A stretch of 64,000 nt of DNA. Source: Acidimicrobiia bacterium (GTDB lineage: Bacteria; Actinomycetota; Acidimicrobiia; IMCC26256; PALSA-555). The stretch's first letter is position 1. Each line of letters starts with the position of its first letter. The notes beneath the pieces were generated by a model. The model worked only from the letters and a program-made list of their open reading frames with translations, was not told the origin of the DNA and made no database searches. The position numbers were made by a program, and so were the translations under genes. Of the stretch, positions 53,316-63,575 are shown one piece after another. The stretch covers positions 966-64,965 of the forward strand of contig DATDGU010000111.1 in the NCBI GenBank assembly GCA_036521915.1. The letters run 5' to 3'.

Positions 53316-54050
53316 TCAGGAAGGTAGCACCGGGGTCGCCGCAGGAGACGTCGCGGCCACGCCCGGTGGTTGGTCCCGGGCGTCGGCGCCGAAGAGCGCG
53401 GCGTGGGTGACGCCGGCGAGGGTGGTGACGAGCTCGGCCCGCCCGACCCGGATCTGGCGGGTCTCCAGGTAGTAGGTGGCGCGCTCGATCATCGCCACCA
53501 GCGCGAGCGCCGCGACGCGGGCGTCGAGGTCGGGCACGGCGGCCCGGACGCGGGTGGTGAGCTCGCGGGCGAACTGGGCGACGAGGTCACCGCCGACCTG
53601 GCCGAGCTCGCTGTCGACGATCTCGGCCTCGGTCCAGGTGCGCAGCAGCGCGCTCTGCTGGTCGTAGAGGTCGGTGAACCGGGCCAGCCAGTCGACGAGC
53701 GCGGCGTAGCCGTCGCGGTCGGGGGTGAGGGGCGGGAGCGCCCGGGCGAGCTCGACCATCGATTCGGTCGTACCGGCGACGAGGGCCCGGAACAGCTCCT
53801 CCTTGCTCGAGAAGTACAGATAGAAGGTGCCGTGCGAGGTGCGGGCGGCCTTCACGATGTCGTCGACGCGGGCGGCGTGGAAGCCCCGGTCGGCGAAGAC
53901 GGCTGCACCGGCGTCGAGGAGCCGGGCGAGGGTGCGCTGCCCGCGGGCGCGCAGCGCCCGGTCCGGGCCCGGGCCGCCCTGGCGGCCCACCGGCCGCGCC
54001 GCGGCGCGCTCGGGATCCATGGTGAACGTCGAGCGTAGCCTGACGCCCAT
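53316..54050 (-). CDS. TetR family transcriptional regulator
   Basis: Has the HTH region LLDAGAAVFADRGFHAARVDDIVKAARTSHGTFYLYF. An alternative ATG is at 54020. Confidence 0.85.
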   Translation of the reverse strand: MGVRLRSTFTMDPERAAARPVGRQGGPGPDRALRARGQRTLARLLDAGAAVFADRGFHAARVDDIVKAARTSHGTFYLYFSSKEELFRALVAGTTESMVELARALPPLTPDRDGYAALVDWLARFTDLYDQQSALLRTWTEAEIVDSELGQVGGDLVAQFARELTTRVRAAVPDLDARVAALALVAMIERATYYLETRQIRVGRAELVTTLAGVTHAALFGADARDQPPGVAATSPAATPVLPS

Positions 54051-54085
54051 GTCACCTTCTGGGTCGCGCGACTAGCCTGCGCGCC

Positions 54086-54511
54086 GTGCCCACCACCGCT
54101 CCCGCCTTCGACGCGCTGTCCGTCGGCGACGCGGCGCCGCCGCTCGTCGTCGAGCAGCTGACCCGCACGAACTTCGTGCGCTACGCCGGTGCGTCCGGTG
54201 ACTTCAACCCGATGCACCACGACGACACCATGGCCACGTCGGTCGGCAACCCGTCGGTGTTCGGCCACGGGATGCTCACCGCCGGGCTCATGGCGCGCGT
54301 TGTGAAGGACTGGTTCGGGCCCGAGGCGCTGCGCCGCTTCCAGGTCCGCTTCTCGAAGCAGGTGTGGCCGGGCGACACGCTCACCTGCACCGCGACGGTC
54401 ACGGGCAAGCGCGACGAGGGCGGCGAGCACCTCGTCGACCTGGCCTGCGCGGTGACGAACCAGGACGGCGTCGAGGTGCTGAGCGGCACGGCGACCGCCG
54501 CGGTGGCCTGA
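54086..54511 (+). CDS. MaoC-like (hotdog) dehydratase
   Basis: 141 aa. Has YAGASGDFNPMHHD, the hydratase-2 motif. Confidence 0.85.
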   Translation: MPTTAPAFDALSVGDAAPPLVVEQLTRTNFVRYAGASGDFNPMHHDDTMATSVGNPSVFGHGMLTAGLMARVVKDWFGPEALRRFQVRFSKQVWPGDTLTCTATVTGKRDEGGEHLVDLACAVTNQDGVEVLSGTATAAVA

Positions 54512-55417
54512 GTGGGGCTCCTCGACGGGCGGGTCGCCGTCGTGACCGGCTCGGGGCGCGGCATCGGCCGGGCCTTCGTGACGGCGATGGCCGACGCGGG
54601 CGCCCGGGTCGTCGTCAACGACGTCGGTGCGGCCCTCGACGGCGCGGGCATCGGCGAGGACCCAGCGACGCAGGTCTGCGAGGAGATCCGGGCGGCCGGC
54701 GGGGAGGCGGTCCCGAACCACGACTCGGTGACCGACTTCGAGGGGGCGGGCCGCATCGTGCAGCAGGCCCTCGACGCGTTCGGGCGCCTCGACATCCTCG
54801 TGAACAACGCCGGGATCGTCCGGGACCGCACCCTGGTGAAGATGACCGAGGCCGACTTCGACGCGGTCCTGGCCGTGCATCTCAAGGGCTCGTTCAACTG
54901 CGCGCACCACGCGGCGGGGGTGATGCGCGAGGCGGGCTACGGGCGCATCATCAACATCACGTCGTCCGCCGGCCTGCGCGGCAACTTCGGCCAGACCAAC
55001 TACGGCGCGGCGAAGGCCGCGCTGATGGGGCTCACGTTCATCTGGGCGCTCGAGCTCGGACGCAGCGGCATCACGGTGAACGCGGTGGCGCCGGCGGGTG
55101 CGACGCGGATGACCGCCGCGCTCTTCGAGCGCTCGGGCGCCGCGCCACCGCCCGAGCAGGACCCGGCCCTGAACGCGGCGCTCGTCGTCTTCCTCGCGTC
55201 GGAGCGAGCCGGCCACGTGAACGGGCAGATCCTCGGCCGCACCGACTACGCGTACACGATCTTCCAGCACCCCAAGCAGATCGCGTTCATGTGGCGTGAC
55301 GGCGGCTGGACGCCCGAGCTGGTCGCCGAGCACTTCGACCAGGTGCTCGGCCAGCACCTCCAGACGGTCGGCATGGTGATGCCGTCCGGGATGGAGTTCC
55401 AGGGCGGGACGCCCTAG
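54512..55417 (+). CDS. SDR family oxidoreductase
   Basis: 301 aa. Has VTGSGRGIG, NNAG and the catalytic YGAAKAA. Confidence 0.85.
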   Translation: MGLLDGRVAVVTGSGRGIGRAFVTAMADAGARVVVNDVGAALDGAGIGEDPATQVCEEIRAAGGEAVPNHDSVTDFEGAGRIVQQALDAFGRLDILVNNAGIVRDRTLVKMTEADFDAVLAVHLKGSFNCAHHAAGVMREAGYGRIINITSSAGLRGNFGQTNYGAAKAALMGLTFIWALELGRSGITVNAVAPAGATRMTAALFERSGAAPPPEQDPALNAALVVFLASERAGHVNGQILGRTDYAYTIFQHPKQIAFMWRDGGWTPELVAEHFDQVLGQHLQTVGMVMPSGMEFQGGTP

Positions 55418-55427
55418 CCCGCGCGCC

Positions 55428-56057
55428 GTGGCCTTCCCGCTCGGCGTCCTCGACCTGGCGTTCCGCCCCGCCCCGCCGCCCGAGGCGGCGCGCCGGGCGG
55501 CGGCGCTCGGCTTCGAGCACATCGACGTCGTCGTCGAGGTCGACCCGGCGACGCTCGCGCTCCCGGTCGGCTGCCCGACGGCGTTCCCGAAGCCCCAGCC
55601 CGGCTGGTGCTCGACGCCCGCGCCCCGCGACGGGCCGGACATGTGGGAGCGCACGGCGCGCTGGTTCCGGCGCGCGCCCGGCGCGCTCCTCGAGCCGTGG
55701 GCCGGCGCGACGGTCTGCTCGCTCGAGACGGTGCGCGCCATGCAGGCCGAGGTGCCAGGTCTGCGGCTGCTCGTCGACACGGGCCACGTCGCGGACTGGG
55801 GCGGCGACCCGCTCGAGCTGCTCGAGCACGCCGACCACCTCCAGCTCCGCCAGGGCGGCCCGGGGCACACCCAGCTGCACGTCGACGACCCGGCCGGCGT
55901 CGTCGACTTCGCCGCGGTGCTCGCCCGCCTCGAGGCGCTCGGCTATCGGGGCCGGCTCTCGGTCGAGTACTTCGACCTCCCCGAGTACGGGTGGGGCCTC
56001 GAGGACCCCCTCGCCTGGACGGTCGCGCTGGCCGAGCACGTCCGGGCGCTCATGTGA
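55428..56057 (+). CDS. Sugar-phosphate isomerase/epimerase-like (xylose-isomerase TIM-barrel) protein
   Basis: 209 aa. Has weak but typical AALGFEHIDV and DTGH motifs. It is shorter than typical family members. Confidence 0.45.
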   Translation: MAFPLGVLDLAFRPAPPPEAARRAAALGFEHIDVVVEVDPATLALPVGCPTAFPKPQPGWCSTPAPRDGPDMWERTARWFRRAPGALLEPWAGATVCSLETVRAMQAEVPGLRLLVDTGHVADWGGDPLELLEHADHLQLRQGGPGHTQLHVDDPAGVVDFAAVLARLEALGYRGRLSVEYFDLPEYGWGLEDPLAWTVALAEHVRALM

Positions 56058-57114
56058 GCCGCGCCTGCAGGAAGGCCACGACGTCGAGGTCCTCGACGGC
56101 CGCGGTGGCGCGCGCCATGCCGCCCTGGCCGACCTCGGCGCGCTGCCAGCGCTCCCCGACCCCGGCGGTCGACGTCGCCGACGCCCACGCGTAGGTCGCG
56201 AACAGCCGGTACTGGTCCCACTGGGTCGCGGCGTCGAGCGTCACGCCGTGCGTGGCGAGCTGCGCGCGGTACCGGTCGAGCCAGGCCCGCTCGTGGGCCC
56301 GCCGGGTCTCGGTCGGGACCGACTGGCACAGCACGTACGCCAGGTCCCACATGCCGGCGCGGTGCTGCACCATGCCCCAGTCGAAGAATCCGGGGCGGTC
56401 CCCGTCGGCGAAGAGGTTCCCGAGGTGCGGGTCCCCGTGGGCGAGCGTGCGCGGCTCGACGTCGAAGAGTGCGGCGACCTCGGGGGTGCGCGCCCCGTCG
56501 AGGTCGCCGACGGCGCGGAACGCCGCCGGGAGCTGGTCGGCGAACTGGTCGAGGGCCTGGGCGATGAAGGGGCCGCCGCCGCCGTAGGCGAGGCGCAGCC
56601 CCTCGCCGATGAACCCGAGCGGCCCGCCGTCGAACTCGGGCGAGGACCAGAACCGGGCGTGGAGCGCGGCGAGCTCGTCGACGAGGCGGGTGACGTAGTC
56701 GACCAGGTCCGGGTCGCGGGGGGTGGGGAAGCGGGCGCCGCTCGCCACGAGGTCCTCGAGCACCATGACGTAGCGGTCCTCGACGACGGCGGCGTGCCAG
56801 ACGTGCGGGATTCGCACCGGGGTGCGCGCCGCGACGTCGCGGTAGAAGCGGGCCTCGGCGACGCCGAGACCGACCGCGTCGACGAAGCGGCGCTGACGCT
56901 CGTCGAAGGGTGCGAGCTTCACGAACACCGACGCGGGCCGTCCGGGCGCATCGCCGTCGTAGGTGACGCCGAGGCGCACCCGGCCGGTCGTCCCCGAGTG
57001 CGCGTCGAGCACCTCGACGGCCCGCACCGGCGCGTCGAGCGCCCCACCCACCCACGCGGCGGTGAGCTCCTCGCGGCGGCCGGCCGGCATCCGCATGGCG
57101 TCGGCTGGCGCCAT
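56050..57114 (-). CDS. Phosphotransferase (APH-like kinase) family protein
   Basis: 354 aa. Has LAHGDPHLGNLF and FFDWG motifs. Confidence 0.75.
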   Translation of the reverse strand: MAPADAMRMPAGRREELTAAWVGGALDAPVRAVEVLDAHSGTTGRVRLGVTYDGDAPGRPASVFVKLAPFDERQRRFVDAVGLGVAEARFYRDVAARTPVRIPHVWHAAVVEDRYVMVLEDLVASGARFPTPRDPDLVDYVTRLVDELAALHARFWSSPEFDGGPLGFIGEGLRLAYGGGGPFIAQALDQFADQLPAAFRAVGDLDGARTPEVAALFDVEPRTLAHGDPHLGNLFADGDRPGFFDWGMVQHRAGMWDLAYVLCQSVPTETRRAHERAWLDRYRAQLATHGVTLDAATQWDQYRLFATYAWASATSTAGVGERWQRAEVGQGGMARATAAVEDLDVVAFLQARLT

Positions 57115-57212
57115 CGGCTCCTCCTCGGTTGGCCGGGCATCATGCCAGCCGCCTCGGGTGCCCCGCCCGGTCGGTACGATCGGAGGTCCTCACCCACGTA
57201 AAGGAAGGTGTG

Positions 57213-57752
57213 ATGGCCCGGATCACGATCCTGGACCCCACCGCGACGCCCCCCCAAGTCACCCCGGACCCCGGTCCCGACGCGGGCCGCCTCGCCGGCA
57301 GGCGGGTCGGGCTGCGCAGCGACGCGACGTGGCAGTCCTGGGAATGGGTGCTCGACGAGTGGCGTGCCGAGCTGAAGGCGGCCGGCGCCGACGTGACCGA
57401 GTGGCACGCCGGCAACCGCATCGGCGACGAGGGCGACCGCACGTTCGCGGAGCTGGCGAGTTTCGCGACCGACGTCGATATCGCCATCGTCGGCCTCGGC
57501 AACTGAGGCTCGTGCACTTCGTGGAGCGTCCACGACACCGTGGCCGCAGCCCACGAGGGCAAGACGGCGGTCGTCGTCGTGACAGCAGAGTTCGAATCCC
57601 TCGCCCACACCATGGCCGCGAACGCCGGCCGGGTGGGCCTGCGCGTGCACACGCTCCCGTATCCCCTCGAATCGCGCCCCGAGGCCGAGGTGCGGGCCAT
57701 CGCCAAGCAGCACTGGCCCGCCCTCCTCACCACGCTCGGCGCGTCGACCTGA
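57213..57752 (+). CDS. Small redox protein with an in-frame UGA in a U-G-S-C motif (candidate selenoprotein)
   Basis: ORFs 57129..57506 and 57540..57752 share a frame and are separated only by TGA 57504-57506. The joined sequence reads ...DVDIAIVGLGN-[TGA]-GSCTSWSVHDTVAAAHEGKTAVVVV... The ATG at 57213 has an AAGGAAGG RBS. A hairpin follows the TGA. Confidence 0.65.
57519..57535 (+). promoter_or_regulatory. Candidate bacterial SECIS hairpin downstream of UGA 57504-57506
   Basis: The mRNA reads UGA-N12-UCGUGGA-GCG-UCCACGA, a perfect 7-bp stem with loop GCG. The loop begins 20 nt after the UGA. Confidence 0.5.
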
Positions 57753-57753
57753 G

Positions 57754-58845
57754 ATGACCGACAGCCGGATCGCGTCCCGCGTCGACTGCGGCCCCGAGGG
57801 CTGCACGATCGAGTGGCTGGCCAGCAGCCGCCTCGAGGTCGAGGACGACGCCGCGGCGTTTCAGAAGCTCGCGACCGACGCCGGGTGGGGTGACGGGCTG
57901 CCCCTCATCCCGCCGACCGAGGACCGGGTGCGGGCCCATGTCGCCGCGTCGGGCCGCTTCCCCGACGAGCACCTCTGCGACCTGCCGCCGCGCAACGGCC
58001 GGGCCACGGTCGAGAAGCTGGCGATCAACGCGGTGATGGCGGGCGCACCCCTCGCGGCGATGCCGCTGCTGTGCTCGGCGATGGAGGCGATGGCCGACCC
58101 GCTCTTCAACCTCTTCGCGCTGAACACCACGACGTCGTGCGTCGCCCCCGGCCTGTTCGTGAACGGCCCGAGCCGCGAGCCGCTCGGCATCCCCTTCGGC
58201 GCCGGCTGCTTCGGCGGTCAGGCCGGTCCCGCCCCGGCGATCGGCCGCGCCACGCGCCTCATGATGCGCAACGTCGGCGGCCAGGTCGTCGGCGTGTCGT
58301 CCAAGAGCGTGTTCGGCCAGCCCGGTCGGGTCACCGGGATCGTCGTGGGGGAGTGGGAGGAGCGCTCGCCGTGGGCGCCGCTCGCCGAGCGGCGCGGCGT
58401 GTCGGGTGACGCGGTCACCGTCCACGGCTGCACGGGGACGATCGACGTCGCCGACATCGTCGCGACGAACGGCGTCGACCTGCTCGAGCTCATCGGGAAG
58501 TCGCTCGCCTTCCCGGGCACGAACGCGTTCATCGCCGGATGGCACGGCGCCGAGATCTTCACGTGCCTCGCGCCGCCCTGGGCCGACCTCATCGCCCGCG
58601 CCTACCCGGCGATCGAGGACGTGCAGGAGCGGCTCTGGGCGCACGCCGCGCTGCCCGTCTCGTGGTGGCCCGCGCCGCACCAGGTGCAGGCGCACGAGCA
58701 CGGCCGGGTGGACGACGCCGGGATGGTCCACCTCGTCGAGGACCCCGAGCACATGCTCGTGATGGTGTGCGGCGGGCTCGGCAACCTCCACGCGCTCGCG
58801 CTGCACAGCTTCGGGCCGACCCGCGCCGTCACGCGAGCCTTCTGA
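57754..58845 (+). CDS. Uncharacterised Cys-rich protein, translationally coupled to the UGSC gene
   Basis: 363 aa. The ATG lies 1 nt after the upstream stop. No family is recognised. Notable strings are GWGDGLPLIPPT, NTTTSCVAPG, GAGCFGG and VCGGLGN. Confidence 0.6.
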   Translation: MTDSRIASRVDCGPEGCTIEWLASSRLEVEDDAAAFQKLATDAGWGDGLPLIPPTEDRVRAHVAASGRFPDEHLCDLPPRNGRATVEKLAINAVMAGAPLAAMPLLCSAMEAMADPLFNLFALNTTTSCVAPGLFVNGPSREPLGIPFGAGCFGGQAGPAPAIGRATRLMMRNVGGQVVGVSSKSVFGQPGRVTGIVVGEWEERSPWAPLAERRGVSGDAVTVHGCTGTIDVADIVATNGVDLLELIGKSLAFPGTNAFIAGWHGAEIFTCLAPPWADLIARAYPAIEDVQERLWAHAALPVSWWPAPHQVQAHEHGRVDDAGMVHLVEDPEHMLVMVCGGLGNLHALALHSFGPTRAVTRAF

Positions 58846-58855
58846 CCCGCCGCCG

Positions 58856-59914
58856 GTGAGCCGACCCGGCGCGATCGTCATTGGCACCGGGTTCGGCGCG
58901 CGCGTCCACTTGCCGGCGATGCAGGCGGCGGGCTTCGACGTCGTCGCGCTCGTCGGGCGCGACCCGGACAAGACGGCCCGCCGCGCCGCGCGGCTGGGCG
59001 TCCCGGCGAGCGTCGATCTCGGGTCGCTGCTCGCCAGCGGCGAGGTCGCCGCGGTGACGATCGCGACGCCGCCGGCGACGCACGCCCGGCTCGCCGTCGC
59101 CGCCGCCGAGGCGGGCAAGCACGTGCTGTGCGAGAAGCCGTTCGCCCTCGACGTCGCCGAGGCCGAGACGATGCTCGCCGCCGCGGACGCGGCCGGCGTC
59201 ACCCACCTCATCGGCCACGAGTTCCGCCTCGCCCCGGAACGGGCCGTGCTCGGGCGGGCCGTCGCCGAGGGCCGGCTCGGCCGGGTGCGGCTGGCGACGC
59301 TCGTGCAGTTCGTCGCGCTCGTCGCCGACCCGGCGGCGCGTACGCCCGACTGGTGGTTCGACGCCGGCGCGGGCGGCGGCTGGCTCGGCGCGTCCGGCTC
59401 GCACGTCATCGACCAGGTGCGCGCCTGGCTCGGCGACTTCGAGGAGGTGAGCGCCCGCCTCCCGGTCGTGTCCGAGCGCACCGGTGCCGCCGAGGACACG
59501 TTCGTCGTGCGGTTCCGGCTGCGCAGCGGCGTCGACGGCGTGCTGGCCCAGACGGCGGCCGCGTGGGGGCCGATGACGGGCGTGACGCGCATCGTCGGCA
59601 CGCGCGCCAGCGCGTGGATCGACGGGAGCGACGCGTGGCTCGCCGACGCCGACGGCACCCGGCGCCTCGACGTGCCCGCCGATCTCGCCCTGCCGTCGCC
59701 ACCCGAGGAATCGACGGACCCGCGCCACCGCTTCACGCACCTCGAGCTCGGTCCGTTCACCCGGCTCGGCGAGGCGCTTCTCGCCGGCGTCGAGGGGCGC
59801 CCGGTGGTGTCGGCCGTCCCGCTCGCGACGTTCGCCGACGGGGTTGCCGCGATGCGCACCCTCGACGCGATCCGCGCCTCGGCGGCGGCCGGCGGCGCGC
59901 CCGTCGCCTGCTGA
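58856..59914 (+). CDS. Gfo/Idh/MocA family oxidoreductase
   Basis: 352 aa. Has the N-terminal Rossmann motif IGTGFGARVH and the EKP motif (VLCEKP). Confidence 0.85.
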   Translation: MSRPGAIVIGTGFGARVHLPAMQAAGFDVVALVGRDPDKTARRAARLGVPASVDLGSLLASGEVAAVTIATPPATHARLAVAAAEAGKHVLCEKPFALDVAEAETMLAAADAAGVTHLIGHEFRLAPERAVLGRAVAEGRLGRVRLATLVQFVALVADPAARTPDWWFDAGAGGGWLGASGSHVIDQVRAWLGDFEEVSARLPVVSERTGAAEDTFVVRFRLRSGVDGVLAQTAAAWGPMTGVTRIVGTRASAWIDGSDAWLADADGTRRLDVPADLALPSPPEESTDPRHRFTHLELGPFTRLGEALLAGVEGRPVVSAVPLATFADGVAAMRTLDAIRASAAAGGAPVAC

Positions 59915-59915
59915 C

Positions 59916-60515
59916 CTACCAGGCCGCCCCGTACCGGTCGCGGTAGGTGTGCTGCGCGAACGGCTCGCGGCGGGGCGGCCCGAGCGCGCGCGCCGGGTAG
60001 CCGAGCGGCACGATGGCCTGCGCCACGACCGTGTCGGGCAGCCCGACGATCTCGGCGAGCTCGCTCGACAGCGTCGTGGTCAGGGTCGTGAGCGCCGAGC
60101 CCAGGCCCAGCGCCTGCGCGGCGAGGCACAGGTTCTGCACCGCCGGGAAGATCGACGCCGGCACCGTCGCGGGGTGCGCACGCGTCCCGTCAGCGGCGAC
60201 GACGACGAGCACGGGCGCGCCGCGATAGCCGCCGCCGGCGATGCCGTGCTCGACGTCGGCCATCAGGCCAGGCTCGAGACGCCGCACGGCGAAGTCGCGG
60301 CCGCCGCCCTCCCACGCGCGCGCCGTGAGGTCGTGAATGCGGGCGCGGGCCGCGTCGTCGCGGACGACGACGAACACCCAGGGCTGACGGTTCTCGGCGC
60401 TCGGCGCGAACGTCGCCGCATCGAGAACCCGCGCGACGACCTCGTCGGGCAGCGGCGTCGACGCGAACGAGCGGCACGCCCGTTGGGCGTGCACCACGTC
60501 GAAGACGTCGCTCAC
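59916..60515 (-). CDS. Nitroreductase family protein
   Basis: 199 aa. Has RACRSF and APSAENRQPW motifs. Confidence 0.85.
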   Translation of the reverse strand: MSDVFDVVHAQRACRSFASTPLPDEVVARVLDAATFAPSAENRQPWVFVVVRDDAARARIHDLTARAWEGGGRDFAVRRLEPGLMADVEHGIAGGGYRGAPVLVVVAADGTRAHPATVPASIFPAVQNLCLAAQALGLGSALTTLTTTLSSELAEIVGLPDTVVAQAIVPLGYPARALGPPRREPFAQHTYRDRYGAAW

Positions 60516-61147
60516 GGGCGCTGCTCGCCGACCCGTCGGAAGCTGTTCACGTACCAGATGCGCAGCGCCGGGTGCCCCGTCCAGGCGCGGAACGCCTCGC
60601 GGTCGAGCCGCTCGCGCACGAGCGGCGTCATCGCCTGGAAGGAGGTCTCGGGGTCGTCGGTGTCCATCTCGTAGAAGTGCAGGAACCGCGGGTCGCCGCC
60701 GTCGGCGTGCTCGTAGGGCGTGACCATCGAGTAGCCCGGGACCGCCGCCTCGGCGATGTGGCGCAGATGGATGAAGTCGGCCCAGTCCCGCAGCGCCGGC
60801 GCGTCGGCGGGCTCCCGTGGGCTGATGAGCACGAGCGACAGCCCGACCGTCGGCCGGCCGGTCAGGCGCCCCTGCCCGGGCCGAGGCGTGGCCCGGAAGA
60901 GGTGACCGGCGACCCCCTCGACCGCCGCCGGCGGGGCGAAGCCGTCGTCGACCTCATACACGCCGAGCGTGTCGAACTCCGGCAAAACCCGCGGCAGATC
61001 GTCACGGTCGCGGTGCACGTTCGTCCACCACGTGGCGCGCGTCGCGCCCGGCCCGCCGAGCACCACCGGGACCCGCTCCGTCGCGTACCGGTCGGGTGCG
61101 ACGTCGGTCATCTCGAGATAGAGACCCGGCGTGTGGCGATCGTCCAC
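60512..61147 (-). CDS. Hypothetical protein
   Basis: 211-aa ORF. Its stop overlaps the nitroreductase start by 4 nt. The composition is coding-like and no family is recognised. Confidence 0.5.
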   Translation of the reverse strand: MDDRHTPGLYLEMTDVAPDRYATERVPVVLGGPGATRATWWTNVHRDRDDLPRVLPEFDTLGVYEVDDGFAPPAAVEGVAGHLFRATPRPGQGRLTGRPTVGLSLVLISPREPADAPALRDWADFIHLRHIAEAAVPGYSMVTPYEHADGGDPRFLHFYEMDTDDPETSFQAMTPLVRERLDREAFRAWTGHPALRIWYVNSFRRVGEQRP

Positions 61148-61814: not shown

Positions 61815-63575
61815 ATGCCAGCCCGCGAATCGCTGCGGAGCCGCCACGTCCCGGCGCCGGGCCAGGCGGCGATGCCCGCCCCGAACGCGGCGGCGCTCAT
61901 CCGCTCGAACGGCGAGCATCCGACGCGCGCCGGGCGGCCCGCGATCAAGTTCGCCGACCGGGTGTGGACCCACGGCGAGTTCTACGCGGAGGCGCGACGC
62001 TTCGCCGGCCTCTTCCGTGAGCGCCTCCCCGTCGACGGCCCCGCCCACGTCGCCGTCCTGCTCGACAACACGCCCGACTACCTGTTCGCGCTCGGCGGCG
62101 CAGCCCTGACGGGCGCGGCAGTCGTCGGGCTGAACCACACCCGCCGCGACGAGCACCTCCTGCGCGACCTGACCCACACGCATTGCAGCCTCGTGATCAC
62201 CGAGCCGCGCCACGTCGCGCTGCTCGACCCGATCGCCGACCGGCTCCCGCCGGTGCTCACGAGCCGCCGCTTCGCCGACGGCGACGACCCCGACCGGGGG
62301 CTCGGCCACGACCTCGCCGACACGCTGGACGCCGTGGACGACACGGACCAGGGCCTTGAGCCCGACGCCGACACGCGCTGGGCGCTCATCTTCACGTCGG
62401 GCACGTCCGACGCGCCGAAGGCGGTGATCTGCACCCAGCGGCGGTTCCTCGTCACGGGCACGCGGATGGGCATCATCATGGACCTCGGGTCCGACGATGT
62501 CGGCTACATCTGTATGCCGCTGTTCCACTCGAACGCGCTGATGGTCGGGTGGGCGCCGTCGCTCGTGTACGGCGCGTCGGTGGGCCTCGCCCGGCGCTTC
62601 AGCGCGTCCCGGTGGCTCGGCGACATCCGCCGCTACGGCTCCACCTACTTCAACTACACCGGGAAGCCGCTGGCGTACCTCCTGGCGACGCCGGCGCGGC
62701 CCAACGACGCCGAGAACCCGCTGCGGGTCGCGTTCGGCAACGAGGGGAGCCCCGAGATCGTCGAGGCGTTCGCCACCCGCTTCGGCGTCGACGTCATCGA
62801 CGCGTACGGGGCCACCGAAGGCGGTGTGGCGGTGAACCGCGACGTCGAGGAGCGCGCCGGCGCGCTCGGCCAGGTCGGCGACAACGTGCAGGTGGTCGAC
62901 GAGGAGGGCCACGCGCTGCCGCGGGCCCGCTTCGGCCCCGACGGGCGGCTCCTGAACGCGGACGAGTGCGTCGGCGAGATCGTCAACACCGCGGGCGCCG
63001 GGCCCTTCGAGGGCTACTACAACAACGCCGAGGCCAACGAGCGGACGCTGCGCTTCGGCTGGTACTGGACGGGCGACCTCGGGTACCTCGACGACGACCA
63101 GTACCTCTACTTCGCGGGGCGCAACGCCGACTGGCTGCGCGTCGACGGCGAGAACTTCCCTGCCCAGCCCATCGAGACGACGATCGCCCGCTATCCCGGC
63201 GTCGTGCTCGCCGCGGTGTACGGGGTGCCCGACGACCAGGCGGGCGACCAGGTCATGGCCAGCCTCGTGCTGGGCCCCGACGCCTCGTTCGACCCCGACG
63301 GTTTCGCCGCGTGGCTCGACGCGCAGGCGACGATCGGCCCGAAGTGGCGGCCGCGCTACCTGCGCCTCCTCACCGACCCGCCCACGACCGGCACGAACAA
63401 GATCGTGAAGCGCACGCTGGTGCACCAGAAATGGCGCCGCGACCGGGTCGGCGGCGACCCCGTCTACACGCGCGGGCGCGGCGAGACGACGTACCGACGC
63501 TTTGGCACCGAGGACGAGGCCGCGCTGCACGACTCGTTCGAGCGCCACGGCCGGTCCCGCTTCGTCGACCTGTGA
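61815..63575 (+). CDS. Acyl-CoA synthetase (AMP-binding, FadD-like)
   Basis: About 586 aa. Has the AMP-binding motif IFTSGTSDAPKAV, YGATEGG and TGDLGYLDDD. Confidence 0.88.
   Translation: MPARESLRSRHVPAPGQAAMPAPNAAALIRSNGEHPTRAGRPAIKFADRVWTHGEFYAEARRFAGLFRERLPVDGPAHVAVLLDNTPDYLFALGGAALTGAAVVGLNHTRRDEHLLRDLTHTHCSLVITEPRHVALLDPIADRLPPVLTSRRFADGDDPDRGLGHDLADTLDAVDDTDQGLEPDADTRWALIFTSGTSDAPKAVICTQRRFLVTGTRMGIIMDLGSDDVGYICMPLFHSNALMVGWAPSLVYGASVGLARRFSASRWLGDIRRYGSTYFNYTGKPLAYLLATPARPNDAENPLRVAFGNEGSPEIVEAFATRFGVDVIDAYGATEGGVAVNRDVEERAGALGQVGDNVQVVDEEGHALPRARFGPDGRLLNADECVGEIVNTAGAGPFEGYYNNAEANERTLRFGWYWTGDLGYLDDDQYLYFAGRNADWLRVDGENFPAQPIETTIARYPGVVLAAVYGVPDDQAGDQVMASLVLGPDASFDPDGFAAWLDAQATIGPKWRPRYLRLLTDPPTTGTNKIVKRTLVHQKWRRDRVGGDPVYTRGRGETTYRRFGTEDEAALHDSFERHGRSRFVDL

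Follow-up and report, generated by a model that had tools for sequence, protein, structure and literature searches.

According to two surveys (Zhang & Gladyshev; PMC1976440, PMC2398784), UGSC has been catalogued since 2007–2008 as a selenoprotein family of unknown function; the second of these reports 255 forms with selenocysteine (Sec) against 21 with cysteine (PMC2398784), as well as fusion to a conserved domain called Unknown_1 (PMC2398784). Reviews from 2022 and 2026 still give its function as unknown, and no biochemical data are on record for either UGSC or the family of its partner (PMC13188914, PMC9312934). The locus analysed here couples a UGSC gene to a gene for a 363-aa protein whose family, called FAM below, may be the same as Unknown_1. 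The original prediction presented the locus as the best candidate for an undescribed system in the window, by which we mean the whole 64,000-nt stretch of DNA that was analysed. That description holds for the partner, whose family has no Pfam or NCBIfam model, but not for UGSC, already on record, nor, should Unknown_1 be FAM, for the fusion. UGSC and FAM together are thus a real and poorly understood system rather than one wholly unseen.

The unit occupies positions 57213–59914 of the + strand. Our reading of the sequence bore out the three packed genes first reported for it, including their coordinates and the spacers of 1 nt (57753) and 10 nt (58846–58855) between them. In order, they encode a 179-aa UGSC-family selenoprotein (57213–57752), the 363-aa FAM protein (57754–58845) and a 352-aa Gfo/Idh/MocA NAD(P)-dependent oxidoreductase (58856–59914). 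Because both flanking genes (56050–57114 and 59916–60515) lie on the − strand, the three + strand genes form one unit. A Shine-Dalgarno-like AAGGAAGG can be read at 57201–57208 on the + strand, 4 nt upstream of the UGSC ATG. Promoter and terminator scans, which do not cover organisms with other promoter types, found nothing, and the 64-kb window contains no tRNA and no Rfam family.

The UGSC gene, its Sec codon and its remote similarity to PrdB

Three lines of evidence argue that the first gene encodes a genuine selenoprotein, as had been proposed for it: a family match that runs across the TGA, the alternation of Sec and Cys among relatives, and a covarying hairpin. The match to the Pfam UGSC model (PF24696) scores 117.4 bits against a cutoff of 25 and covers residues 5–176 of 179, extending over both sides of an in-frame TGA (57504–57506, + strand) that would be read as Sec at residue 98, within GLGN-U-GSC-TSW. 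Among 86 UGSC relatives, the corresponding column holds TGA in 77 and a Cys codon in eight. The candidate SECIS hairpin (57519–57535, + strand) begins 15 nt past the U of the UGA and has a 6-bp stem (UCGUGG/CCACGA) and the loop AGCGU. Its offset is the same in 81 distinct UGSC genes, and it covaries across them, with double changes at six of seven pairs and an observed value that none of 500 shuffles reached. Ten sequences from the window's own clade were checked for pairing, of which eight keep five or six of the six pairs and two (L004 and L012) keep four. An alternative hairpin at 57530–57543 is kept less well in the clade and was set aside. A DNA pattern combining UGA and SECIS found 120 matches, all 120 inside UGSC genes. 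These patterns establish, at the level of sequence, the Sec decoding signals of the gene.

The NCBIfam equivalog NF041046 scores the gene at 74.8 bits, under its cutoff of 125; of two fusions from the main family, P0208 passes with 133.1 bits and P0302 fails with 100.3 bits. The window's clade is best described as a divergent branch of the UGSC family. Public gene calls break UGSC at the TGA and shorten Sec-type fusions. Several full-length fusions have neither Cys nor Sec in the UGSC domain and keep all of the partner motifs, so not every lineage depends on the Sec centre.

In a model of a natural fusion, the UGSC domain takes a Rossmann/flavodoxin-like α/β/α form, with the Cys that stands in place of Sec lying between strand 98–104 and helix 107–122. 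This departs from the literature, which puts the family down as thioredoxin-fold-like (Zhang & Gladyshev; PMC1976440, PMC2398784); in our analysis, UGSC showed no thioredoxin fold. The Pfam UGSC model matches one genuine PrdB protein over the Sec region (E 0.0014), and hhalign comparison of the UGSC and PrdB profiles gave probabilities of 47–75%, with E values from 2e-4 to 2.7e-5 over 86–92 columns. The alignment score of 38.8 compares with a maximum of 20.9 over 40 column shuffles and with 20.7 for the reversed alignment. Three motifs are common to both families, namely (L/Y)DNxxxN(A/K)D, D-x-V-(I/V)-x-(G/T)-x-G-(x)-U-G-(S/T)-C and E-x-x-G-(x/I)-P-T. The U-x-x-C and its flanking motifs align between the two, and the UGSC model places that position at the end of a strand and the N-terminus of a helix (the PDB holds no PrdB or GrdB structure). 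The similarity to PrdB is clear in these alignments, and UGSC appears to be distantly related to the core of this D-proline reductase protein that carries Sec. The likeness is local (about 90 residues) and falls short of the cutoffs curated for the two Pfam models; Pfam GRDB (PF07355) was matched at E ≤ 5 by none of the 24 UGSC sequences compared with it.

The partner protein and its pairing with UGSC

UGSC and FAM are paired near-obligately. UGSC lies adjacent and on the same strand at 76 of 80 partner loci in genomes, and the partner is adjacent at 52 of 54 informative UGSC loci in metagenomes. A single open reading frame encodes both in 58 of 144 pairs (about 40%), in either domain order (UGSC-FAM and FAM-UGSC), and the natural fusion is modelled as one compact two-domain body (pLDDT 90.7, pTM 0.89). 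The hosts are largely Acidimicrobiia, Chloroflexota, and Beta- and other Proteobacteria, along with one haloarchaeon. Pairs or fusions of the Cys type include those of Nocardia sp. CA-135953 (L008), Frankia canadensis (L010), Pseudonocardia sulfidoxydans (L011) and Natrialba asiatica (L018) and the fusion P0208, whereas the cultured Robertmurraya sp. 2P01SA (L059) has the Sec type. Some genomes have several paralogous pairs: L042 has a tandem array of three, and a Chloroflexi MAG has at least six. The original prediction had linked the two proteins by gene order alone, proposed a survey of their co-occurrence, and named absent synteny or assignment to a housekeeping family as grounds for giving up the link. 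The synteny proved near-obligate and no family was matched, and the adjacency and fusion counts support the link more strongly than gene order did. Near-obligate pairing in both directions, together with fusion, argues that UGSC and the 363-aa protein work together as one unit.

The partner family is without any described relative in Pfam, NCBIfam, PDB sequences or PDB folds, although it comprises about 3,800 clusters at 50% identity. Gene 2 has no Pfam or NCBIfam match at E ≤ 0.1 and no match among PDB sequences, where a profile of 58 diverse members also found none; the 58 diverse relatives gave no Pfam match, and members of the family gave none in NCBIfam. Its AF2 model (pLDDT 79.6, pTM 0.84) had no match in a Foldseek search of the PDB, in which the best E value was 0.015 with a TM of 0.26 and an rmsd above 13 Å. 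The entries behind these weak best scores are [4Fe-4S] class I fumarate hydratases. The early impression of a protein that matches no nameable family has thus survived the profile-HMM and structure searches suggested along with it.

Family-wide conservation falls on D47-G-L-P50, P54-T55, A-V-M-A-G97, T126-T127, N-G-P139, G164-R165, R168, K/R192, E200, E202, P206-W207 and H346. The four Cys/Gly strings that had been singled out as conserved-looking (NTTTSCVAPG, GAGCFGG, HGCTG and VCGGLGN) are all present in the translation, and for two of them the description fits the close clade, in which gene 2 is 75–90% identical: C152 (GCFGG) is invariant there and C129 (NTTTSC) is kept in 95%. The Cys of HGCTG is less well kept (84%), as is that of VCGG (55%), and none of the four is family-wide. 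In the wider family, C152 is kept in 58% and the other three motif cysteines are absent, with Cys in at most 4% at each of the HGCTG and VCGG positions. A different Cys pair is conserved there, at positions 98 (90%) and 197 (92%) in the numbering of the window's protein, where that protein and its clade have no Cys. Being Cys-rich is therefore a trait of the clade and not, as first described, a feature of the protein as such.

Comparison of the FAM profile with PrdA, PrdD and PrdE by hhalign gave probabilities of at most 0.1%, and the idea of the partner as a PrdA/GrdE-like pyruvoyl proprotein was ruled out on sequence. No PF09338 (Gly_reductase) gene was found in any neighbourhood listed. Since FAM is without similarity to PrdA, PrdD and PrdE, the pyruvoyl chemistry of Stickland enzymes cannot simply carry over. 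The T-S-C-V-A-P string seen in the clade is reminiscent of T-C-I-G-P in PrdA, the site of the cleavage that forms the pyruvoyl group; the wider family lacks the Cys of the clade's string.

A proposed Sec-dependent reductase and its alternatives

Our preferred reading is that genes 1 and 2 encode two subunits of a Sec-dependent thiol/selenol reductase, which about 40% of relatives would make as one polypeptide; we regard this proposal as evenly balanced between right and wrong. A redox role is plausible given the PrdB-like U-x-x-C module and the existence of a fusion between FAM and a low-Mr thioredoxin-reductase-like flavoprotein domain. This fusion is rare, being confined to one cluster with two members (P0268 and a second 695-aa cluster member). 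The added domain of the P0268 type combines the glycine motifs for FAD and NAD(P)H with a redox motif, CAVC, which suggests electron flow from NAD(P)H through FAD and a dithiol to the partner. Thioredoxin-reductase genes occur nearby at two of roughly 210 loci, and a nearby-encoded thioredoxin reductase was rejected as a general partner.

For the chemistry, electron path and substrate class, we infer a model in which the 363-aa protein binds the substrate and houses catalysis and UGSC is a small α/β (Rossmann/flavodoxin-like) redox subunit that presents U98-G-S-C101 at the end of a strand and the N-terminus of a helix. The U98 selenolate would attack either a substrate bound to the partner or an oxidised Cys pair of that protein, C101 would resolve the adduct to give a selenenylsulfide, and a thioredoxin-type system would re-reduce the selenenylsulfide. 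The genes around the pair suggest a part in breaking down small organic or carboxylic acids: the top neighbour clusters at 82 loci include CoA-transferase III, luciferase-like monooxygenase, SDR, MmgE/PrpD, enoyl-CoA hydratase, acyl-CoA dehydrogenase and Bug/TctC binding proteins, and the neighbours in the window's cluster include TetR, MaoC, SDR, an acyl-CoA synthetase and a TIM-barrel protein.

The original prediction went further and took all three genes for a self-contained reductase, in which electrons would pass from NAD(P)H to the Gfo/Idh/MocA enzyme, from there to UGSC and finally to the 363-aa protein. Its UGSC/FAM part stands as a unit with a plausible reductase role, but the Gfo/Idh/MocA gene belongs to the pair only in the window's clade. 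The 10-nt spacing does suggest coupled expression, and a Gfo/Idh/MocA gene follows the pair in four other clade members (L085–L088), usually behind a 2-hydroxyacid-dehydrogenase gene. However, none follows it in L001 or L004, and Gfo/Idh/MocA is not in the top 10 of 25 neighbour clusters listed for the 82 loci. A conserved third gene was sought and rejected, with no neighbour cluster present at more than 18 of these loci. The third gene matches PF01408 (91 bits), PF22725 (63.9 bits) and PF02894 (46.4 bits), whereas its best specific NCBIfam matches, to levoglucosan and inositol dehydrogenases, fall far under their cutoffs, and no equivalog reaches its cutoff. Enzymes of the Gfo/Idh/MocA type catalyse hydride transfer on sugar-like and polyol substrates, and we know of none with disulfide or selenenylsulfide reductase activity. 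We consider the three-gene reductase distinctly unlikely. Gene 3 is better described as an operon member specific to the window's Acidimicrobiia clade and outside the conserved core; the NAD(P)-dependent dehydrogenases encoded downstream of the pair in that clade would probably act on the substrate or product, electron delivery being less likely.

The remaining alternatives assign the pair a different kind of chemistry. The partner might be a cofactor-independent, non-redox enzyme, such as a two-base isomerase, a racemase or a hydro-lyase with a carboxylic acid as its substrate, with UGSC keeping its thiols reduced or regulating it. Such an enzyme would suit the fusions that have no Cys or Sec in the UGSC domain but all partner motifs intact, the neighbourhoods rich in CoA-transferases, hydratases and MmgE/PrpD, and the two conserved Cys of the wider family, which together with its Arg, Lys and Glu are typical of acid/base catalysis on carboxylates. 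Nonetheless, we find it unlikely: Sec is strongly preferred over Cys (77 versus 8 here, 255 versus 21 in PMC2398784), a costly choice of the sort expected for a catalytic redox residue, the thioredoxin-reductase-like fusion and the PrdB similarity indicate electron transfer, and the window's clade lacks both candidate acid/base Cys. A redox role need not be catabolic, and the pair could serve in defence or repair, for example by reducing peroxides, disulfides or sulfoxides or by acting as a sensor. One survey describes most U-x-x-C selenoproteins of prokaryotes as thiol oxidoreductases (PMC2398784), and a nitroreductase gene adjoins the operon both in this window and in a number of its relatives. 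Yet the several paralogous pairs per genome, as in L042 and the Chloroflexi MAG, look like substrate diversification, unlike a single housekeeping defence, the neighbourhoods are catabolic, and the partner is large, with the high identity across the clade noted above and enzyme-like invariant polar residues; this makes a defensive role very unlikely. Finally, it is highly improbable that the partner's cysteines bind a metal or Fe-S centre to which UGSC delivers electrons or which it assembles. The fumarate hydratases among the weak Foldseek scores and the three to four conserved Cys in the clade (C12, C17, C129 and C152) and in the wider family (98, 152 and 197) would be consistent with such a centre, but the structural superposition amounts to no match, C152 is the only Cys common to both sets and is itself kept in little more than half of the wider family, and no Fe-S or metal motif family was matched.

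Comparison with known reductases

If the preferred two-subunit reductase is placed in a wider setting, UGSC and FAM may constitute an uncharacterised selenoenzyme class, a cousin of the Stickland reductases that joins a PrdB-like Sec subunit to a catalytic subunit of new fold. Through its many paralogues, bacteria of soil, groundwater and seawater, and some archaea, would reductively cleave or reduce small organic acids. We offer this proposal tentatively, with the balance leaning somewhat against it; if true, such a class would account for the rank of UGSC among the most abundant selenoproteins of ocean and freshwater metagenomes. UGSC occurs nearly always with one specific large partner family that has no Pfam or NCBIfam model, and this association, the frequent single-polypeptide form and the PrdB-like Sec module turn a catalogue entry into testable biochemistry. 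For annotation, FAM merits a model of its own.

Two known systems invite comparison. AhpF/AhpC is a reductase recycled by a fused or paired thioredoxin-reductase-type module, and one FAM variant likewise carries a thioredoxin-reductase-like domain with a CAVC motif; in contrast to AhpF/AhpC, this domain is rare in FAM, rarely encoded next to it and absent from the window. The PrdB/PrdA and GrdB/GrdE pairs differ from the pair described here in that UGSC has no GRDB match and its partner is unrelated to PrdA, PrdD and PrdE and bears no sign of a pyruvoyl group. The hosts differ as well, the PrdB examples that we retrieved coming from Clostridium and other Firmicutes, whereas UGSC and FAM are found largely in Acidimicrobiia, Chloroflexota, Proteobacteria and a haloarchaeon. 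What the pair shares with PrdB/PrdA and GrdB/GrdE is its architecture, a small U-G-(S/T)-C selenoprotein together with a larger protein that binds the substrate, a division of roles that is predicted for UGSC and FAM.

Operon layout and the selenoprotein gene

The region 57213-59914 holds three plus-strand open reading frames, and the compact three-gene unit of the original prediction, with its spacers of 1 nt and 10 nt, is correct. Gene 1, encoding the UGSC-family selenoprotein, runs from an ATG at 57213, 4 nt after a Shine-Dalgarno-like AAGGAAGG, to a TGA at 57750-57752, and its full length needs readthrough of an in-frame TGA at 57504-57506. Gene 2 (ATG 57754 to 58845) follows after 1 nt and encodes the 363-aa protein referred to here as the partner, and gene 3 (GTG 58856 to 59914), encoding a Gfo/Idh/MocA oxidoreductase, begins after a further 10 nt. 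By their layout the three genes make up a single transcription unit, since both flanking genes, for a phosphotransferase (56050-57114) and a nitroreductase (59916-60515), lie on the minus strand.

The gene 1 product, with C in place of U, matches Pfam UGSC (PF24696) at 117 bits, and the match (residues 5-176) extends to either side of the TGA. It scores 74.8 bits against the NCBIfam equivalog NF041046, under the cutoff of 125, and the window's clade is a divergent UGSC branch. Across 86 UGSC genes of other genomes, the Sec column is TGA in 77 and a Cys codon in 8. In 81 distinct UGSC genes the UGA is immediately followed, at a fixed offset, by a hairpin with the family consensus UCGUGG-AGUGU-CCACGA. 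In an alignment of 32 sequences, changes occur on both sides in 6 of the 7 hairpin pairs, 82% of hairpin cells are paired (24-47% when the pairing partner is slid), and none of 500 shuffles matched the observed covariation. The window's candidate SECIS hairpin (57519-57535, plus strand) consists of a stem of 6 bp and the loop AGCGU. Of the 10 clade sequences checked, 8 keep 5-6 of the 6 pairs, and L004 and L012 keep 4. These features support the assignment of gene 1, from its sequence, as a genuine UGSC selenoprotein.

A second possible hairpin, CCACG-ACAC-CGUGG (57530-57543, plus strand), shares bases with the 3' arm of the SECIS candidate. Folding the window sequence to minimum free energy favours a longer structure that uses this second hairpin. 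It keeps 3-5 of 5 pairs in the clade, where the hairpin at 57519-57535 is better conserved.

A large partner family paired with UGSC

The original prediction held that the 363-aa protein matches no nameable family, and profile and structure-model searches bore this out. The protein, identical to the Acidimicrobiia MAG entry "hypothetical protein VI462_04695" (P0001), had no match in Pfam or NCBIfam at E ≤ 0.1 and none among PDB sequences. A Pfam scan of 58 diverse members (31-50% identity) matched none of them, a profile built from these members found nothing among PDB sequences, and main-family members are without an NCBIfam model. The AF2 model of the window partner (pLDDT 79.6, pTM 0.84) had no credible structural neighbour in the PDB, the best match being a class I fumarate hydratase with E 0.015, TM 0.26 and rmsd >13 Å. 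Relatives are nonetheless abundant: 2,488 matches among the scored candidates of a 90%-clustered collection, of which the top 120 all lack a name or are called "hypothetical" and none has a Pfam domain, and 3,798 clusters at 50% identity (E ≤ 1e-3). They are encoded at at least 597 loci of species-representative genomes, in Actinomycetota, Chloroflexota, Alpha-, Beta-, Gamma- and Deltaproteobacteria, Methylomirabilota/Rokubacteria, Binatia, Bacillota, Bacteroidota, Poribacteria and a haloarchaeon. The partner thus represents a large family described by no library.

The link between the UGSC and 363-aa proteins, originally drawn from gene order, is strongly supported. Neighbourhood analysis across genomes, using a purpose-built UGSC HMM, placed a same-strand adjacent UGSC gene at 76 of 80 fetched partner loci, as a rule immediately upstream, in some cases immediately downstream. 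Of the remaining four loci, one is interrupted by a contig end; the other three (L016, L076 and L079) have sequence on both sides of the partner and no UGSC gene detected within 6 kb. The reverse test used a DNA pattern built from the UGA and SECIS region alone, and is therefore independent of the partner. This pattern matched 120 metagenome stretches, all 120 in UGSC genes. Where a stretch extended 700 nt or more in both directions (54 cases), a same-strand adjacent partner was present in 52.

Moreover, 58 of 144 UGSC-then-partner pairs are in one frame and stop-free, so that the fused pair makes one selenoprotein, about 530-560 aa long. All seven long partner representatives carry a complete N-terminal UGSC domain, and fusions in the opposite order occur in P0182 and P0200. 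The model of a natural Cys-type fusion, P0208, is compact and two-domained (pLDDT 90.7, pTM 0.89). A "UGSC/Unknown_1" fusion was described in ocean reads (Zhang and Gladyshev, 2008; PMC2398784), and it is probably the same fusion. Adjacency and fusion together strongly support UGSC and partner as a predicted single functional unit. In public gene calls the counterparts of gene 1 are systematically broken at the TGA, leaving one piece of ~97 aa and another of 57-70 aa (L001-L004, L085-L088), and Sec-type fusions are shortened to ~410-435 aa, ending at the Sec codon, in many database proteins (for example, P0273-P0388). As a result, both family and fusion are largely invisible in annotation.

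In P0282 and P0205 one polypeptide carries two partner domains in tandem, which hints that the partner may work as a dimer. Complete UGSC-partner pairs also stand in arrays of two or three (L042:1650-7026, L021 and L039), and a groundwater Chloroflexi MAG has three pairs in a row, with more copies on its other contigs.

Conserved residues and gene neighbourhood

Family-wide conserved positions of the partner, in window protein numbering, are W45, D47-G-L-P50, P54-T55, A90, N92, V94-M-A-G97, T126-T127, N137-G-P139, G154, G164-R-A166, R168, N173, G188, P190, K/R192, E200, E202, P206-W207, G215 and H346. This set is enzyme-like, with Arg and Lys that could serve a carboxylate and Asp, Glu and His that could serve acid/base chemistry. 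The four conserved-looking Cys strings of the original prediction held up in part: C152 is Cys in 99% of the clade and C129 in 95%, but the strings are mostly clade-specific, and C152 is Cys in only 58% of sequences outside. C12 and C17 are invariant in the close clade only, within which the HGCTG and VCGG cysteines reach 84% and 55%. The wider family has Cys at 98 (90%) and 197 (92%), where the window protein has Ala and Val. Some full-length fusions keep every partner motif and have neither Cys nor Sec in the UGSC domain, which argues for the partner as the catalytic body, with an evolutionarily plastic thiol/selenol inventory around it. Four such fusions (P0185, P0244, P0306 and P0314) have neither residue at U-x-x-C and retain all conserved partner residues.

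The proposal of a self-contained three-gene module was unsupported beyond the clade, which we set at ≥77% identity. The clade operon consists of UGSC, partner, an optional 2-hydroxyacid dehydrogenase and then Gfo/Idh/MocA (window, L085-L088); the last gene is missing after the pair in L001 and L004, and lies outside the conserved core. The most frequent neighbour family of the partner is present in no more than 18 of 82 loci. Recurrent neighbours, named by eye from representative sequences without a Pfam scan, include Bug/TctC binding proteins, family III CoA-transferases, luciferase-like monooxygenases, SDRs, MmgE/PrpD, enoyl-CoA hydratases, acyl-CoA dehydrogenases, NHL/SGL beta-propellers and FMN 2-hydroxyacid oxidases. 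Given this distribution and the clade-limited Gfo/Idh/MocA gene, the NAD(P) enzymes are clade-level companions, and are more likely to work on the substrate or product than to supply a selenenylsulfide with electrons.

Upstream, the clade shares a block of MaoC dehydratase, SDR and short xylose-isomerase-like TIM-barrel genes (within 53316-57114); in the window and in L087 a TetR gene stands before it. This block recurs in L085, L087 and L088 (cut by the locus end in L088). What lies between the TIM-barrel gene and UGSC differs among loci: a P450 with ferredoxin, an amidohydrolase or an APH/EcKL kinase. The region resembles a catabolic island in which one module can be exchanged. Downstream, the nitroreductase recurs in most clade loci, and an acyl-CoA synthetase gene (61953-63575 in the window) in L087 and L088. 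Directly downstream of the nitroreductase, with a 4-nt overlap, lies a minus-strand gene for a 211-aa protein without a Pfam match (60512-61147). An unannotated gene of 212-220 aa holds the same place in L086, L087 and L088, and the two genes may be a second conserved pair. In two clade members a DUF6282 gene lies a few kilobases downstream of the UGSC-partner pair (L001:12401-13113 and L085:8615-9092).

Possible electron supply and relation to the Stickland reductases

The likeliest mechanism, at about even odds, is that of a two-subunit Sec/Cys-dependent reductase, in which a selenolate/thiol pair like that of PrdB, the Sec-bearing D-proline reductase subunit, would act on a catalytic subunit from a family not yet described. 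UGSC is already known from the literature, as is its fusion to an unknown domain, so the system is not categorically new. It is a worthwhile target because an abundant orphan selenoprotein gains a defined partner and testable chemistry.

One rare fusion bears on electron supply. P0268 (695 aa) has a partner domain, without a UGSC domain, fused to a low-Mr thioredoxin-reductase-like domain (Pyr_redox_2, E 6e-41) with FAD and NAD(P)H glycine motifs and a CAVC redox motif; its cluster includes a second 695-aa member, P0509, from an independent assembly. Thioredoxin-reductase genes seldom adjoin the pair. Read as a Rosetta stone, P0268 suggests electron flow from NAD(P)H through FAD and a dithiol to the partner, in which UGSC would normally fill the place of the dithiol carrier.

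A PrdB query sequence, 86% identical to database PrdB proteins, matched Pfam GRDB (E 3e-17) and, in the Sec region, the UGSC model (E 0.0014). With hhalign, a 24-sequence UGSC profile aligned to an 18-sequence profile of real PrdB proteins over 92 columns (probability 47%, E 2e-4). First-sequence match states gave probability 75%, E 2.7e-5 and a score of 38.8, against 20.9 for the highest of 40 column shuffles and 20.7 for the reversed alignment. Three motifs are superposed in the alignment: (L/Y)DNxxxN(A/K)D; U-G-(S/T)-C with its preceding strand, D-x-V-(I/V)-x-(G/T)-x-G; and, eleven residues past the Cys, E-x-x-G-(x/I)-P-T. By these comparisons the UGSC protein is similar to the Sec-bearing core of PrdB. 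In the P0208 model, the Cys at the Sec position sits between strand 98-104 and helix 107-122. The structure matches listed for this model include generic Rossmann/flavodoxin-like alpha/beta/alpha folds (about 150-185 aligned columns), which we take, from output without query ranges, to cover the UGSC domain, and no thioredoxin-fold proteins; the PDB copy searched held no PrdB or GrdB structure.

Unlike the Stickland reductases, the system has no PrdA-like sequence in its partner, which showed no similarity to PrdA, PrdD, PrdE, PrdB or UGSC, and its UGSC protein falls below the Pfam GRDB threshold; it thus counts as neither a proline nor a glycine reductase. By analogy, however, the UGSC Sec module plausibly works like that of the proline and glycine reductases.
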